From Minisyncoccota bacterium (lineage in GTDB: Bacteria; Patescibacteriota; Minisyncoccia; Phycocordibacterales; Phycocordibacteraceae), in contig JAGOQE010000002.1 in NCBI GenBank assembly GCA_017991635.1, positions 35,018 to 99,017 on the forward strand: a stretch of DNA of 64,000 bases, written 5' to 3'. Under the pieces are notes generated by a model. The model saw only the letters and a list, made by a program, of their open reading frames with translations. It had not been told where the DNA came from and did no database searches. The position numbers and the translations under genes are program-made. Shown in pieces: positions 20,458 through 26,035 of the stretch (positions are counted from its first letter, which is position 1; every line of letters starts with the position of its first letter).

Positions 20458-20529
20458 GGCCTCATCGTCTAACGGTTAGGACAGATCCCTCTCACGGATC
20501 AAATCGGGGTTCGATTCCCCGTGAGGTCA
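20458..20529 (+). tRNA. tRNA-Glu (anticodon CUC)
   Basis: Cloverleaf folded by hand: 7-bp acceptor stem (one G-U), 4-bp D stem with a GG-containing loop, anticodon stem gatcc/ggatc with loop c-t-CTC-a-c, 4-nt variable region, T arm cgggg-ttcgatt-ccccg, discriminator A, no encoded CCA. 72 nt. Confidence 0.8.
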
Positions 20530-20541
20530 CAAATCGGCCAA

Positions 20542-20563
20542 CCCAAAAGCGTAAGCTTTTGGG
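20542..20563 (+). terminator. Hairpin directly after the tRNA (cccaaaagc-gtaa-gcttttggg)
   Basis: 9-bp stem with a GTAA loop, followed by ctgttgccgtttg. Confidence 0.4.
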
Positions 20564-20807
20564 CTGTTGCCGTTTGTAGACCTCACGGGAATCGAAGGAC
20601 GGAGGCCGCGAAGCCTTGCGAAGCAAGTGGCCGAGTCGGGCGTAGATTTTGTTGCGCGTGAGCGAGCTAGAAAATCAAGTGCAAAGCACTGCGAAATTTC
20701 AGCGGAAAATTATCTGTGGTCGATGGGCGCTCGTATTCCACACGAACGCAGTGACTCGGGAATATGCAGTCTCTTCATGAATTCACAGAAATATAAACCA
20801 CAGGCCT

Positions 20808-22931
20808 TTGACGTACAGATCAAATTTTATCCGCTATACTATATCTGTGGAATTTTTCTCGTACATTGGTTTACACACTCTATACTTGCTCGTTTTTTCT
20901 ATTGCCCTCGGGCTCGGTTTGGGTGCGTCTGCGCTGAGCCATATACTTTTTCTTTTTTCAGGTCGTGATCGAACAGTGTCGCGCGACGAGTTTAAATTGT
21001 TGAAAGTGTCGCGCATTGTGGTCTGGGTCGCAATTCTTTTGTATGGGTTTAGTGGACTAGGTCTCTTTACACTTGCGTATGAGTCGATGATTGAGCTTGG
21101 AATTTTTTACGCAAGCCTGACCATCGCAGTGATCCTTATCGGGAATGAAATTGTATTTGCTATGCGTCACCTACCTCGCGTGCGCGATATTCGCGACGGA
21201 AGGATCGCGCTCGATGCACTCGTTTTAGAAAGTGGGGCTGTATCCGCGGTCTCGTGGGTATTTTTAATGTTTCATCACACAATCTACAGGACTGATATAG
21301 GATATTTTGCATTTATGGCGCTTTACGCCGTGGCTATTGCTATTGTTATGCTTTTGACATGGACTGTACGCCGAAGAGATGCGCGCACTCACGACACAAT
21401 AGTGTTGAAGCGGTCAGTTCTTGCCGCTCTTTTTTTCGCACTTGTTTTTGCAGGTGCATGGCTCGCCAAGGCTGACAGCGTTATAAAGCCTGCCGAAATA
21501 GGAAAGCGTCTAGCCACCGAAGTTGTTGGCTCGACTTACACAATTGATGATGTTGCCCTTCATAATAATTCAGAGGATTGTTGGCTCGTCATTGATAGCA
21601 AGGTATTCAACGCGACTGAAGCGTCACGTCTTCATCCTGCAATGTTCAACTGTGGCGAGGAGGTGAGTGAGAATTATCACAAGAACCATGGCGAGGGCAT
21701 CAGAGATAAGATGATGAAGTACTACATAGGCGATCTTCGCAGCGGGAAAGGTGTAACGAATACCGACGCACCCTTCAAGAGGAACGAGACACTCAAACCG
21801 TACCGCGAGTTGTATGTTGACGAAGGATCGTGGAATGCACTTGAATTGATGCTTGTTGTTGAAAAAGATGCCGAGAAGCTCCTTGCTATCGACGGAACGA
21901 CGCACACGGTGATTGGGCGCGTGCACGATGTTGGTTTTCAGCCACACACCTCTGTCTACTCTTCGGATGCAAAATACATGTATATCATTTCTCGGGATGG
22001 ATGGCTCACGAAGATTGACCTAACTACTCTCGAGCCAGTCGCATCAGTGCTCGTAGGTGAGAATTCGCGCGGGACAGCTATCACTGATAACGATAAATAT
22101 GTTGCCATCGGCAATTACAATCCCGGGAATGTTGTTATCCTTGACGCTTCATCGATGGAAATTCTAAAAACTATACCGCTCTCGATGGAAAAGGATGGTA
22201 AACAGATTGAGTCTCGTGCGGGTGCAGTTGTCGAAGATGGAAATCGGATTATTGTTGCGCTTAAAGACGGGACCAGTGTTTGGGCGATAGATACTGACCA
22301 ATCTGGGTTCCCTGTGACGCATAAATTTTCGGACATAGGAGCCGGCAGGCCCGCGCTCCACGACGCCTTTCTCACACCAAATGGCTCGCATTATATTGTT
22401 GCATCGCAAGGATCGAAGACCGCATGGATACTTGATGTGGCGACCATGAAACCAGTTGCGGAGATAGAGACTGGCGATACACCGCACACGGGCCCGGGTG
22501 CTGCTTGGGGTAACTACATTTACATCCCGTCGTTGGGAGAGGGCCTTATTACTGTTATCGATATGACCACATGGAAGCCAGCGAAATATATAAAGACCGG
22601 CGGACCAGGTCTGTTTGTGCGGAGCTACAGTAAGGATCCGACCTATCCATATGTGTGGGCCGACACTGCATTCGGCGATCACAAGGATGAGATTTATGTT
22701 ATTGACGCGCGAGTCAATGAGATCGTGAAAACGATTATTCCGGTTAAGGGCGAAAGTTCGTGGCATCCGGAGTTCACCTATGATGGAAAATTTGTTTACG
22801 TTGTATCTCAATCTGCGAACGAAGTTGAGGTGTACGATGCGTACACCTTTGATATCGTAAAGCGCATTAAATCTGAGACACCTTCAGCGATATCTAACGT
22901 TGGCCTACGAATCGAAGAGCCAGGACTGTAA
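20808..22931 (+). CDS. Membrane-anchored fusion protein: N-terminal polytopic membrane domain, cytochrome b5-like heme-binding domain, C-terminal beta-propeller (YVTN/cd1-like repeats)
   Basis: Several N-terminal TM helices. The middle segment fits the cyt-b5 pattern (LHNNSEDCWLVIDSKVFNATEASRLHPAMF...YHKNHGEG). The C-terminal region has repeated beta-propeller-like blades. Confidence 0.6.
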   Translation: MTYRSNFIRYTISVEFFSYIGLHTLYLLVFSIALGLGLGASALSHILFLFSGRDRTVSRDEFKLLKVSRIVVWVAILLYGFSGLGLFTLAYESMIELGIFYASLTIAVILIGNEIVFAMRHLPRVRDIRDGRIALDALVLESGAVSAVSWVFLMFHHTIYRTDIGYFAFMALYAVAIAIVMLLTWTVRRRDARTHDTIVLKRSVLAALFFALVFAGAWLAKADSVIKPAEIGKRLATEVVGSTYTIDDVALHNNSEDCWLVIDSKVFNATEASRLHPAMFNCGEEVSENYHKNHGEGIRDKMMKYYIGDLRSGKGVTNTDAPFKRNETLKPYRELYVDEGSWNALELMLVVEKDAEKLLAIDGTTHTVIGRVHDVGFQPHTSVYSSDAKYMYIISRDGWLTKIDLTTLEPVASVLVGENSRGTAITDNDKYVAIGNYNPGNVVILDASSMEILKTIPLSMEKDGKQIESRAGAVVEDGNRIIVALKDGTSVWAIDTDQSGFPVTHKFSDIGAGRPALHDAFLTPNGSHYIVASQGSKTAWILDVATMKPVAEIETGDTPHTGPGAAWGNYIYIPSLGEGLITVIDMTTWKPAKYIKTGGPGLFVRSYSKDPTYPYVWADTAFGDHKDEIYVIDARVNEIVKTIIPVKGESSWHPEFTYDGKFVYVVSQSANEVEVYDAYTFDIVKRIKSETPSAISNVGLRIEEPGL

Positions 22932-22981: not shown

Positions 22982-24004
22982 TTGCATGCTAAAATCCCCT
23001 CAATGCGCCCCCTACGTCTCCGCAAACTCCTCAAACGCAAACTCCCACTCCTCGTCTTCCTCATTCTCCTCGTTGTAGCTTTCTCTGTCGCATTTTATAT
23101 ATACCGAAACTCTCCCGTAGAGCCTCTAAGCCCCGAGGCATACAAAGAACTTGAGGCAAGGCTTGTAACACTTGTTGAGGACGAGGACCCGCGCGTCGCA
23201 CTCCATGCTCTACAAGAAGAAATTGATAGAAGTGAGAGTGTACTTCGCTCATGTCATGGCTTGGTACACGAAATAGGACATGAGGCATATGAGAAATACG
23301 GAGACGTGGCGAAGGCATTTTCATACCGAGACGAAATCTGCGGGGCAGGGTACATACACGGCGTGATTGAGTCCTATATGGATGATAAGGGGTTTGAGGA
23401 GAGTGAACTTTCTTCTATTTGCACTTCGTATAAAGGGGAAGATCGCGATAACTGCTTCCATGGTGTGGGGCATGGACTCATGTTCTATACGAGAAATGAT
23501 GTACCCGCGTCTATAACGTCATGTCATGCACTTACGGACGCGAAAGCACGTATGCGGTGTGCCGAGGGAGTCTTCATGGAGAACTTTGAGAGTGACGATG
23601 TCTTCCACCTCTCTGAGTATGTGGATGATAACGACCTCTTTGGAATTTGCAGGGAACAAAAAGAAATCTATCAAAAGGGTGCGTGTTACTTCTACGCACC
23701 ACTCTTTTATTTGAATGAACATGAGCGGGATTACGCCGACATGTTTGCATTGTGTAGGGAAGCTGAGGCTCCCTATATTTCTACCTGTATAAAAGGTACT
23801 TCAAGTAGGGTCACGAAGGAGAATATTGAACGCCCATCTCTAGTCTCTTCATACTGTATGAAGCAGAAAGGGTATGAGGGTGCGTGCGTTGAGGGAATAG
23901 GAAGTTACTACTATACGCACTACGGCGACACGAAAAAGGTAGAGGAACTCTGCAGTAAGGTTGCAAAGGATTATATGTCTGCCTGTACGAGCACGCTTAA
24001 GTAA
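22982..24004 (+). CDS. Hypothetical membrane-anchored Cys/His-rich repeat protein
   Basis: N-terminal TM followed by about seven spaced C-x-x-G/E-x-x-H/Y units: SCHGLVHEIGH, ICGAGYIHG, NCFHGVGHG, RCAEGVF, GACYFYAPL, TCIKGTS, GACVEGIGSYYY. Confidence 0.5.
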   Translation: MHAKIPSMRPLRLRKLLKRKLPLLVFLILLVVAFSVAFYIYRNSPVEPLSPEAYKELEARLVTLVEDEDPRVALHALQEEIDRSESVLRSCHGLVHEIGHEAYEKYGDVAKAFSYRDEICGAGYIHGVIESYMDDKGFEESELSSICTSYKGEDRDNCFHGVGHGLMFYTRNDVPASITSCHALTDAKARMRCAEGVFMENFESDDVFHLSEYVDDNDLFGICREQKEIYQKGACYFYAPLFYLNEHERDYADMFALCREAEAPYISTCIKGTSSRVTKENIERPSLVSSYCMKQKGYEGACVEGIGSYYYTHYGDTKKVEELCSKVAKDYMSACTSTLK

Positions 24005-24047
24005 AAACAGAAAAGCTCCACCAAAAGGCAAAGCCTTTCCGTAGAGC

Positions 24048-24365
24048 CTAGAAATTCCTGCGTTTTGTTCGTGTCAGTTCAGGCCAGATAGGCAGGCAGA
24101 GGACGACGATGAAAAGGAGAGCAAGGAAGGCAAGCACACTGCTTGTGGTCACGAAATAGTCACGCGGAGAGTGCTTCCAGCCAAGCCAGAAACACACACC
24201 ACAACACAAGGACCAGAAGAGGGAGTACGACCACGCGATGATTCGGTGCTGTGCCTTAGAGGCGCTCATGCGTAAGAGCGCGACTACCACAAAAACGAGA
24301 AAGAAGTTCAGTACAAACACTATAGTCCAAACGAGCACAGGAATGCTGATTCCAGCTTTTTCCAT
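24048..24365 (-). CDS. Hypothetical small polytopic membrane protein
   Basis: Start moved to the internal ATG (MEKAGISIP...), which has a GGAGGA SD 6 nt upstream. The longer GTG-started ORF in the track would overlap the divergent promoter. Confidence 0.5.
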   Translation of the reverse strand: MEKAGISIPVLVWTIVFVLNFFLVFVVVALLRMSASKAQHRIIAWSYSLFWSLCCGVCFWLGWKHSPRDYFVTTSSVLAFLALLFIVVLCLPIWPELTRTKRRNF

Positions 24366-24432
24366 AGCGTTTCCTCCAGTTTCTACCTCTACGCTATGAC
24401 CTAGAAGGCATAAAATCAAGCCCTCTAGGTAC

Positions 24433-24461
24433 TTGACTTTTGACACTATGTGTGATAATAT
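24433..24461 (+). promoter_or_regulatory. Sigma70-like promoter for the GC-rich gene: TTGACT ... TGtGATAAT (extended -10)
   Basis: TTGACT at 24433-24438. TGTGATAAT at 24451-24459 (alternatively read as TAATAT at 24456-24461 with a 17-nt spacer). Sits in an AT-rich 163-bp spacer 70 nt upstream of the 24529 ATG. Confidence 0.4.
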
Positions 24462-24528
24462 ATATGTACGTCAGGAAGGCTGACGAAGTACCTCAACATC
24501 AATCAGTTTACCTCTGGAGACGACCCAC

Positions 24529-25596
24529 ATGACCCAGTCCCAAGAAGCGCGTTTCGACTTCCCGGGTTTCAACCTGGTGAAGACGCAGGACAACGACCGC
24601 CACCAGGTGGAAGTCGGCACGATCGAGGACGGGGACCACGTGTTCACCGTCACCATGATCCGCAGCCAACAGCACCAGTTCCTCCCGTTCGCCATCTCGA
24701 CGGTGGCCGACAAGGACGGCAAAAAGATCTGGACCTTCCAGGGCGCCAAGCACGACGGTGTCGGCCTTCTGGCCTACGCCGGCGATGTGCCCGTCATCGC
24801 GCTCATCACGCGCGGCAAGGATCCCATCGTCGAGCGGGTCATTCCGCTCACTTCCCTGGTCAGCAACAAGCCCGTCGGGCTTCGTGAACTGATCAAGGGC
24901 AAGATGGGCGCCGCCATCGACCTCGACTGCCGCTACCGGCTGACCGAGGACGAGGGGAAGGTCGTCAAGATCGACGAAGGCCGGATGCACGCCGAGATGG
25001 TCCGCAAGGACCGCGAGGCGAGCGAGCGTCGGAACTCGGCCCGCGATGCGGAGAAAATCCGCAGGCAGGAAGAGGCCCGGGCACAAGAGGCGGAGCGCGA
25101 AAAGCGCGTCGCCCTGATCATGATCCGGGAAATCGTCACGGGCTACACCGCCCTGGGCGAACGGCGCTACGGCACTCCGGTCCTCGAGGCCGAGTGGCAG
25201 TCGCTTCCGAACGGCACCTTCGCCATTCTCGTCGACGCCATCGGCGAAGACGGGAAGGTCGGCAAACTGCTCGAAAGCTTCAAGATCGTGAAGCAGGCGG
25301 GCAGGCAACCGATGAAGGTGATGACCAGCCAGCTGGCCGCCAGGCAGGAAGGTCCGACGGAAATTCCGGAGGAGCTTCAGCCCACGGGCACGGTTCTGGT
25401 GGAGATCAAGGACGACTTCTTCAATGTCGGCCTCTACGCCTCCAAGGACCTGATCAACAGGGCCTGGAAGGCCGGTCTCAACGGCGGCGCCTATGTGGCC
25501 GTCGACGACCGTGACGCCGACGGCAAACTGGTCGTCTTCACCGTCACGAAGGAAACCGGCGCCAAGAAGGTCGGCTCCTTCATCCCCCTCGGCTAG
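24529..25596 (+). CDS. Hypothetical protein encoded by a strongly GC-rich (foreign-looking) ORF: two globular regions joined by a highly charged E/R-rich helix
   Basis: 355 aa; GGAG SD 9 nt upstream. The third codon position is almost always G or C (GAC, GGC, CTG, ATC, AAG, CGC...). Followed by a textbook intrinsic terminator. No family recognised. Confidence 0.6.
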   Translation: MTQSQEARFDFPGFNLVKTQDNDRHQVEVGTIEDGDHVFTVTMIRSQQHQFLPFAISTVADKDGKKIWTFQGAKHDGVGLLAYAGDVPVIALITRGKDPIVERVIPLTSLVSNKPVGLRELIKGKMGAAIDLDCRYRLTEDEGKVVKIDEGRMHAEMVRKDREASERRNSARDAEKIRRQEEARAQEAEREKRVALIMIREIVTGYTALGERRYGTPVLEAEWQSLPNGTFAILVDAIGEDGKVGKLLESFKIVKQAGRQPMKVMTSQLAARQEGPTEIPEELQPTGTVLVEIKDDFFNVGLYASKDLINRAWKAGLNGGAYVAVDDRDADGKLVVFTVTKETGAKKVGSFIPLG

Positions 25597-25645
25597 TCCG
25601 AGTACTGCACCTTAGGCCCCACCCAATTGGCCTTTCAAATGGGAA

Positions 25646-25678
25646 CCCCGTAGTCATGCGACTACGGGGTTTTGTTTT
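25646..25678 (+). terminator. Intrinsic terminator of the GC-rich gene
   Basis: Perfect 10-bp stem ccccgtagtc / gactacgggg with an atgc loop, followed by TTTTGTTTT. Confidence 0.7.
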
Positions 25679-25686
25679 ATACAGAG

Positions 25687-25717
25687 CGCCCCTGAAGACC
25701 TTCGGTCTTCAGGGGCG
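25687..25717. other. Second GC-rich hairpin (about 14-bp stem, 3-nt loop) between the convergent genes
   Basis: gcgcccctgaagacc-ttc-ggtcttcaggggcg. No clear T-tract on either strand. Confidence 0.4.
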
Positions 25718-25720
25718 TCT

Positions 25721-26035
25721 TCATTGCAGTGTCTTAAATTTTGTCGGATCAAGACCCGCAAGAACATTTATGGTGTGTTCACCAGGCACGGGCTCTGTGG
25801 GCACGTGAATCAATGCACACTCAGGAGAGAGACAGACGCCATCGCGTAGTTGCGTCAGGCACATAATGGCTCTCTCAAGCATCTCAGTAATGGCGAGAGT
25901 TGAAGCACTTTGAAGGAGGGACTTCTTTGTGCTTGTAATCACTCCGTCATAGATGACGGCACCGAAGCTTGACCCTTCAAATTCAAAGTCAAGAATCCAC
26001 GAGCCAGGTTGGTTCGGAAACAACAGGTCGTTCAT
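25721..26035 (-). CDS. Hypothetical protein (104 aa), downstream of truB on the same strand
   Basis: Host-like composition; no motif recognised. Confidence 0.45.
   Translation of the reverse strand: MNDLLFPNQPGSWILDFEFEGSSFGAVIYDGVITSTKKSLLQSASTLAITEMLERAIMCLTQLRDGVCLSPECALIHVPTEPVPGEHTINVLAGLDPTKFKTLQ

Follow-up and report, generated by a model that had tools for sequence, protein, structure and literature searches.

A membrane-tethered cytochrome b5 fused to a heme-d1-type propeller in Patescibacteria: a possible extracytoplasmic reductase without c-type heme

Introduction

Bacteria of the candidate phyla radiation (CPR)/Patescibacteria are usually described as obligate fermenters that lack electron-transport chains, heme synthesis and c-type cytochromes. 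What, then, would such a bacterium do with a multidomain hemoprotein at its surface? The question is raised by a 64,000-nucleotide (nt) stretch of a Minisyncoccota genome (GenBank assembly GCA_017991635.1, contig JAGOQE010000002.1, positions 35,018 to 99,017 of the forward strand; hereafter the window), in which a first-pass annotation made from the DNA letters had noticed a cytochrome b5-like domain fused to a beta-propeller. Our analyses revealed that three parts are joined in this one protein: a membrane module, then a cytochrome b5 domain, then a full-length heme-d1-type propeller. We propose, with about an even chance of being correct and on the basis of sequences and structural models, that it is a "cytochrome b5-d1," i.e., an extracytoplasmic terminal reductase that would function without c-type heme and for which nitrite or nitric oxide (NO) would be the likeliest substrate and O2 an alternative. 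No published description of the module-b5-d1 architecture was found in the literature. What is known is the NirN/NirS-type d1 propeller; what is new is its combination with a CopD-like module and with a b5 domain instead of cytochrome c.

Gene Structure and Domain Organization

An open reading frame (ORF) does exist at 20808..22931 on the + strand, as first annotated, but the start of the gene lies 39 nt further downstream. Because nearly all of the closest homologues are exactly 694 amino acids (aa) long and begin with MEFFSY, without the 13 codons added by the start at 20808, the GTG at 20847 is the real start. The gene, which ends at 22931, is organized as follows.

20847..22931, + strand: complete gene, 694 codons plus stop, GTG start
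20847..21482, + strand: six-helix membrane module (aa 1-212), N-out/C-out, CopD/DUF2214/DUF2269/HemJ-like superfamily
21543..21737, + strand: cytochrome b5 domain (aa 233-297), PF00173 match, axial His candidates H263 and H281
21834..22928, + strand: eight-bladed heme-d1-type beta-propeller (aa 330-694), PF02239 match, AlphaFold2 model

The mean predicted local distance difference test score (pLDDT) of the full-length AlphaFold2 model is 82. The CxxCH motif is absent from the whole protein, which contains only two Cys in total. Thus, a c-type heme is impossible, and the b5 domain provides the only candidate heme for electron entry. As part of the proposal made above, and with the same balanced confidence, the gene product would be a membrane-tethered, surface-exposed electron-transfer hemoprotein. 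Searching ~5.8 billion proteins with a cut-off of E ≤ 1e-5 yielded 192 clusters of homologues. Residue conservation was assessed in an alignment of 36 diverse family members with 47-100% identity, to which all statements of invariance below refer.

The Propeller and Its Heme Pocket

The propeller gave a full-length match to PF02239 (Cytochrom_D1; 229 bits vs. 25.5, E 7e-68, profile positions 2-365 of 368), and in the AlphaFold2 model it consists of eight blades of four strands each, with pLDDT mostly at 85-97. When searched with the family profile, the closest solved relatives by sequence were NirN (E 2e-68), NirF (1e-52) and NirS (about 2e-27). In a Foldseek search against the PDB, the top 30 matches were all NirN, NirF or NirS, followed after a large gap by an archaeal YVTN S-layer protein. 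Of the YVTN/cd1-like propeller suggested earlier, the cd1 part is thus borne out, while the assignment to a generic YVTN propeller is not.

To map the pocket, profile alignments were combined with the residue roles from the NirF structure paper (PDB 6tv2). The corresponding residues are listed below, where NirS(Pp) is the enzyme of P. pantotrophus.

21945-21947, + strand: H367, equivalent to NirF H48 and NirS(Pp) H200; proximal His and iron ligand, also found in NirN
22359-22361, + strand: H505, equivalent to NirS(Pp) H345, the second catalytic distal His; Asp in NirN, Tyr in NirF
22485-22487, + strand: H547, equivalent to NirF H238 and NirS(Pp) H388; second axial/distal His
22764-22766, + strand: H640, equivalent to NirF H325 beside the ring-D propionate; common to NirN
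K340: equivalent to NirF R21 and NirS R174; binds acetates
R383: equivalent to NirF R65; binds acetates
R408: equivalent to NirS R243 and the corresponding NirN Arg; contacts the ring-B oxo/acetate groups; I90 in NirF
L589/F590: equivalent to NirF V280/F281; hydrophobic contacts

All mapped pocket residues, including H505, are invariant, and so are the basic residues K340, R383, R408, R457 and R592. Thus, the pocket is NirN-like overall, yet has a distal His pair of the NirS type. In P. aeruginosa NirS the distal catalytic His residues are H327 and H369, and in NirN the ring-D His that aligns with H640, His417, is reportedly essential for catalysis.

NirN, the dihydro-heme d1 dehydrogenase of Pseudomonas aeruginosa (PDB 6rtd/6rte), is the best match in both sequence and structure. 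Like the protein studied here, it has an extracytoplasmic eight-bladed d1 propeller with a one-electron heme domain in front, and the two have in common the proximal and distal His, the ring-B Arg (R408), R383, R592 and the ring-D His (H640). NirN, however, possesses a cytochrome c domain where our protein has a b5 domain, no CxxCH and, in addition, a six-helix tether. NirN also has Asp at the position of H505 and sits in a nir cluster with its client NirS, whereas the b5-d1 gene lies outside nir clusters, with no sign of a NirS client. NirS itself (cytochrome cd1; P. pantotrophus, 1aof/1e2r; P. aeruginosa, 1nir) has the same propeller fold, and H200, H345 and H388 of the P. pantotrophus enzyme are H367, H505 and H547 here, with R243 and R174 matching R408 and K340. 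The match to NirS is far weaker (99 bits), and our protein has neither the c domain nor the Tyr-bearing N-terminal arm of NirS, has Pro in place of R391 and, unlike NirS, has no d1 biosynthesis genes found nearby. NirF (PDB 6tv2), which functions in d1 biosynthesis and is membrane-anchored in some species, is likewise located at the outer face of the cytoplasmic membrane, and its H48/H238, R65 and H325 correspond to H367/H547, R383 and H640. It differs from our protein in having no fused heme domain, Ile (I90) at the position of R408 and Tyr at that of H505.

That NirN and NirF are nearest by sequence and structure leads to the chief alternative, in which the protein would be a tetrapyrrole-processing or -scavenging enzyme. 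The propeller would then, as in NirN or NirF, oxidize or otherwise modify a bound tetrapyrrole as its substrate rather than keep it as a fixed cofactor, the b5 domain and the HemJ-like heme-b module would carry electrons off, and a heme-auxotrophic episymbiont would mature or capture host heme or d1-type precursors at its surface. H640, which equals both the NirF His at the ring-D propionate and a NirN His, and the invariant basic residues that bind the d1 acetates are consistent with such an enzyme. The invariance of H505, a NirS-specific distal His missing from both NirN and NirF, argues against it, and no nirS or other d1 client and no d1 pathway genes were found in the contexts examined. 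We consider tetrapyrrole processing a serious but rather unlikely explanation.

The Cytochrome b5 Domain

The b5 domain matched PF00173 above the gathering score (29.4 vs. 23.7 bits, E 8e-7), and the domain alone matched 47 distinct b5-type sequences in the PDB (best E 7e-7). H263, in an HPA motif, aligns with b5 His39 (HPGG), and H281, in NHG, aligns with b5 His63 (GHS), with two short deletions between them relative to the PDB b5 sequences. Both are invariant. The following residues of this domain are of particular relevance.

21579-21581, + strand: C245, invariant
21633-21635, + strand: H263, axial ligand candidate
21651-21653, + strand: C269, invariant
21687-21689, + strand: H281, axial ligand candidate

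Thus, the cytochrome b5 heme-binding pattern that the first-pass annotation had read in this segment is confirmed, and neither of the findings that it had named as refuting its reading was obtained: the conserved b5 His are both there, and the family to which the propeller was assigned (heme-d1 NirS/NirN/NirF) is a redox family. The domain is predicted to bind heme at a canonical bis-His site. C245 and C269 are the sole Cys of the protein, and a disulfide between them is plausible in an exported domain.

Eukaryotic sulfite oxidase and nitrate reductase are b5-fusion oxidoreductases. In enzymes of this kind, such as flavocytochrome b2, the b5 domain is a built-in one-electron relay to or from the catalytic domain, as it would be here, and among the matches of our b5 domain are flavocytochrome b2 and both microsomal and mitochondrial b5. 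The catalytic partner in those enzymes is a flavin or molybdenum domain, whereas in our protein it is a heme propeller. Our protein also differs from them in being bacterial and extracytoplasmic, in its shortened inter-ligand loop and in its two invariant Cys.

Long variants of the family (~770 aa; P0083-P0119 type, ~764-785 aa) contain a second b5-like domain ahead of the canonical one. In this extra domain (e.g., aa ~234-300 of P0091), both His are replaced, HP by YP and NYHKNH by EYR..R, and it could be Tyr-ligated or heme-free. The loss of both ligands there, together with the automated annotations YncE or YVTN (other database names of the family are NirF, cytochrome D1 domain-containing and hypothetical protein), would be in line with a non-catalytic surface propeller, such as an adhesin, an S-layer-like protein or a substrate-binding YVTN protein, in which heme binding by the b5-like domain has been lost. 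Given the full-length d1 match, the invariance of every pocket His and Arg and of the canonical b5 ligands, and the wide margin by which the d1-type structures outscore YVTN structures in the fold comparison, such a role is very improbable.

The Membrane Module

Hydropathy predicted six transmembrane (TM) helices, with the N- and C-termini outside according to the positive-inside rule, and the AlphaFold2 models agree on the helix boundaries (module modelled alone: pLDDT 88, predicted template modelling score 0.86). The three predicted inside loops contain 17 Lys/Arg and the outside loops only 1; this split places the N-terminus and everything after TM6, i.e., the b5 domain and the propeller, on the extracytoplasmic side by prediction. 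The first-pass annotation had counted about six helices ahead of the b5 domain and had suggested an extracytoplasmic redox module; the former agrees with these predictions and the latter fits the N-out/C-out topology. Two family-invariant His sites are found in the module.

20874-20876, + strand: H10, outer end of TM1
21273-21278, + strand: H143/H144, outer end of TM4

No Pfam model matched the first ~212 residues of the protein. When 1.84 billion representatives were searched with a profile of residues 1-201, 684 clusters were found, 269 of them at E ≤ 1e-10, and the homologues are mostly stand-alone proteins of 175-220 aa. Pfam matches among the best 150 homologues (E ≤ 0.01) were to CopD (33), DUF2214 (20), DUF2269 (7) and UPF0093/HemJ (4). 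Through these homologues, and not through a match of its own, the module is predicted to belong to the CopD-like superfamily (PF05425, PF09980, PF10027 and PF03653). The TM1 His of that superfamily (position 17), which hundreds of stand-alone ~190-aa module proteins carry, is Phe in our protein, where H10 and H143/H144 take its place. HemJ (PgdH2), a protoporphyrinogen dehydrogenase, is a b-type hemoprotein of the membrane, and the distant relatedness to UPF0093/HemJ is consistent with a tetrapyrrole-processing enzyme; the preponderance of CopD and DUF2214 over HemJ among the 150 homologues, however, does not favor it.

The same 150 homologues included fusions of the module to d1 propellers (9), VKOR (8), b5 (6), plastocyanin/cupredoxin (5) and cytochrome c (1). 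Examples with cupredoxin, cytochrome c and VKOR partners in the representative library are P0161, P0175, P0167 and P0239, and a fusion of a cupredoxin to a d1 propeller also exists (P0301). Such swapping of one-electron carriers, with cupredoxin joined to the d1 propeller and cupredoxin, cytochrome c and VKOR joined to the module, suggests a role in electron relay. For extracytoplasmic redox carriers in general, the module subfamily may act as an adaptor to the membrane.

Distribution and Genomic Context of the Family

The family comprises more than 190 homologue clusters, almost all from Patescibacteria, plus a single-anchor, actinobacterial-type clade. The membrane module is present in 39 of 39 full-length CPR copies. 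Forms of ~515 aa (Yonathbacteria) and of ~556-605 aa (actinobacterial-type clade) possess the b5 domain and d1 propeller without the six-helix module, in place of which an Acidimicrobiaceae-labelled copy (L048) has a single TM anchor. A pattern-limited scan of one genome per species yielded 43 reference loci, almost all in metagenome-assembled genomes (MAGs) of Patescibacteria, namely Paceibacteria (Nomura-, Kaiser-, Wolfe- and Azambacteria). Several loci labelled Bdellovibrionales, Gammaproteobacteria or Saccharibacteria (L013, L021, L042 and several "Saccharibacteria" loci) have Paceibacteria-type genes and synteny, and their labels are probably taxonomic errors of automated binning.

No universal neighbor was found among the clustered flanking ORFs of the 43 loci. 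A bona fide copper nitrite reductase, NirK, is encoded within 8 kb in 8 of the 43 (TIGR02376 equivalog, 303-311 bits vs. a cutoff of 296.3), and in five loci, among them close relatives of the window gene (L009, 86% identity), nirK follows on the same strand after 34-689 nt. In the nirK operons an ArsR/SmtB regulator is found directly upstream, with gaps of 34-36 nt in the arsR-gene-nirK arrangement. Six long-variant loci and P0116 have a FAD-linked 2-hydroxyacid dehydrogenase (FAD_binding_4/FAD-oxidase_C, YdiJ/GlcD-like) immediately next to the gene. Two independent actinobacterial-type loci encode an Rrf2-family regulator whose gene shares 4 nt with the b5-d1 gene, on the downstream side in one case and on the upstream side in the other.

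L051:11770-12252: Rrf2-family regulator overlapping the gene
L053:7372-7785: Rrf2-family regulator overlapping the gene

Other recurrent neighbors are class I and II ribonucleotide reductases with accessory genes, a large serine recombinase (six loci) and cobalamin salvage genes (Cob_adeno_trans, DUF4430 and DUF6580; adjoining the gene in 4-5 loci). The cobalamin salvage genes would suit a tetrapyrrole-processing enzyme, but they probably serve the neighboring class II ribonucleotide reductase, and the linkage to nirK, ArsR, Rrf2 and the dehydrogenase points to small-molecule redox chemistry.

The arsR-gene-nirK arrangements with their short gaps could also mean that the protein is not an enzyme itself but an electron donor or partner of NirK. 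The tethered b5 domain would then pass electrons to the type-1 copper of a membrane-anchored NirK, and the propeller heme would be an extra relay, a docking platform or an NO trap. The electron donor of CPR NirK is an acknowledged gap, and the module is also fused to cupredoxins, the classical NirK donors. Most loci of the family, however, have no nirK within 10 kb, none is present in the 64-kb window, and the contexts read of the actinobacterial-type clade contain no nirK. A simple shuttle, moreover, needs no invariant NirS-like catalytic pocket. A role only as NirK donor is decidedly unlikely and, like the non-catalytic propeller, less likely than tetrapyrrole processing.

Proposed Role and Its Weaknesses

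In the proposed b5-d1 reductase, electrons would enter from the membrane side, from quinol or a cytoplasmic flavoprotein, for which the FAD-linked 2-hydroxyacid dehydrogenase adjoining the long variants is a possible candidate. They would cross the membrane module, in which a heme b bound at the outer face by H10 and H144 might take part, and pass to the b5 heme, which would stand in for the c heme of NirS/NirN. From there they would reach the propeller heme, where the NirS-like distal His pair H505/H547 would help to reduce a small oxidant, with nitrite or NO favored because of the linkage to nirK and the ArsR/Rrf2 regulators. The organism would use the protein as an electron sink or as a detoxifier of N-oxides or O2, not as part of a full respiratory chain. 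This proposal fits a problem left by previous work on Parcubacteria, in which electrons were said to reach NirK "by an unknown means" and the fate and toxicity of NO were left unexplained (Danczak 2017). CPR bacteria were generally considered in the same work to be without electron-transport and biosynthetic capacity (Danczak 2017).

Several observations weigh against such a reductase. The cofactor is its main weakness: the pocket retains the residues that bind the d1 substituents, yet no d1 pathway is in sight. Heme-d1 biosynthesis genes (nirE/DLGH/J/F) were not found in the 64-kb window and did not recur within ±10 kb of the gene in the 43 loci and 10 further contexts. To our knowledge, CPR bacteria generally have no tetrapyrrole synthesis. 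Some CPR MAGs have been reported to carry heme-synthesis genes. The similarity to the biosynthetic NirN (234 bits) and NirF (182 bits) is far above that to NirS, and the family keeps H640, which NirN and NirF have in common. The conserved His of the module are all on the outer face, so that a full electron path across the membrane is not evident, and the conserved His of the wider superfamily is at position 17, not at 10/144. Finally, the window is among the majority of loci without nirK within 10 kb, and where nirK does adjoin, a second nitrite reductase would be redundant.

A more elaborate scenario, which we consider quite unlikely, is as follows. In heme-auxotrophic CPR episymbionts, the protein would form a minimal surface chain, free of c-type heme, from a HemJ/CopD-like heme-b module to b5 and then to the d1-type propeller, with tetrapyrroles, including a d1-type isobacteriochlorin, obtained from a denitrifying host. 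The chain would feed or complement the Parcubacteria NirK and dispose of nitrite or NO, and in some lineages the gene would be switched or mobilized by a serine-recombinase cassette with double inverted repeats at tRNA-Glu.

Codon Usage, Mobility and Age of the Gene

The first-pass annotation had described visibly deviating codon usage and had suggested horizontal acquisition. The four codons that it named are all raised in the gene relative to 41 neighboring genes (ATA, 0.23 vs. 0.15; TCG, 0.35 vs. 0.09; CGC, 0.39 vs. 0.28; GCG, 0.33 vs. 0.21). At 35% of Ser codons, TCG usage is the highest of the 43 window genes (mean 8.4%, standard deviation [sd] 6.9%; ~3.9 sd), and NCG (CpG-containing) codons overall are about 2 sd above the window mean. 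The overall synonymous-codon likelihood is, however, not outlying (z = -0.84, rank 10 of 42), nor are the GC content (0.476 vs. 0.483 ± 0.021) and GC at third codon positions (0.482 vs. 0.452 ± 0.038).

The dcw cluster (mraZ-rsmH-PBP-murF) and a tRNA gene precede the b5-d1 gene in the window; the remaining genes are housekeeping, and no NirK, FAD oxidase, ArsR or recombinase gene is found in the 64 kb.

20458..20530, + strand: tRNA-Glu(CTC), 316 nt upstream of the gene; it also precedes the gene in the relatives L003, L008 and L010

A 76%-identical relative, on a 645-kb contig, keeps the murF-tRNA-Glu-gene-truB order. Given this conserved position, the gene is not a recent arrival in this genome. 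Elsewhere the family occurs in many unrelated contexts. In two independent sister MAGs, L008 and L010 (86-87% identity), tRNA-Glu is followed by a serine recombinase and then by the b5-d1 gene, the recombinase being bracketed by inverted repeats of ~130 nt and the gene by inverted repeats of ~300 nt that are 99-100% identical.

L008:7876-12375: recombinase/inverted-repeat cassette, beginning at the 3' end of tRNA-Glu
L010:7880-12373: recombinase/inverted-repeat cassette, beginning at the 3' end of tRNA-Glu

The cassette with the gene may be invertible (phase-variable) or mobile in these two MAGs. L020 carries the gene in inverted orientation with respect to the tRNA. The double inverted-repeat layout of L008 and L010, with a serine recombinase and a different cargo of ~1.7 kb, recurs at L043:14272-18377, 2 kb downstream of the b5-d1 gene of L043, and the recombinase cassette may be a general element type in Paceibacteria. 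The window copy (20458-22931) has no such inverted repeats. Thus, the NCG enrichment, the many contexts and the recombinase cassette speak for horizontal acquisition, while the ordinary GC and codon usage and the conserved locus speak against it: the gene is old in the lineage but occupies a hotspot of recombination, and in sister genomes it may be mobile or invertible. As for the tRNA-Glu site itself, the only public contig with an identical murF (Logan contig SRR11088468_436406, L001) ends ~226 nt past murF, inside tRNA-Glu (window ~20487), which suggests that strains in that sample differ structurally at this site.

Neighboring Features Downstream

The following features lie between the b5-d1 gene and truB in the window.

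22982-24004, + strand: 340-aa protein, encoded 50 nt past the gene; N-terminal TM anchor, Cys-rich exported domain
24529-25596: orphan 355-aa ORF without a Pfam match
25642-25673: strong terminator hairpin

The exported domain of the 340-aa protein carries HEIGHE, an HExxH motif, and repeated C.HG.GH-like motifs. Neither Pfam nor NCBIfam gave a match to the protein, which is not a conserved neighbor in other loci, and no terminator was found between its ORF and the b5-d1 gene. The region at 24000-26000 has a GC content of 0.55-0.59, compared to a window mean of about 0.48, and a strong A-over-T skew. The segment 22982-26071, which separates the b5-d1 gene from truB, is missing in its entirety from the syntenic relative L003 and appears to be an insertion in its own right.

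Implications

The family is widely conserved and strongly constrained, and the protein is rich in soluble domains. A b5-d1 reductase would show how an active site of the denitrification type can operate in cells that have no machinery for cytochrome c maturation, and it raises the question of where such cells obtain d1-type heme, or any heme. Through its repeated linkage to NirK, redox-sensing regulators and a flavin dehydrogenase, the family is a concrete candidate for both gaps identified in 2017, i.e., how electrons reach the Parcubacteria NirK and what becomes of NO. Homology-based "nirS" counts in CPR genomes probably score members of the b5-d1 family, and the true activity of the family therefore affects the inferences drawn about the nitrogen cycle.

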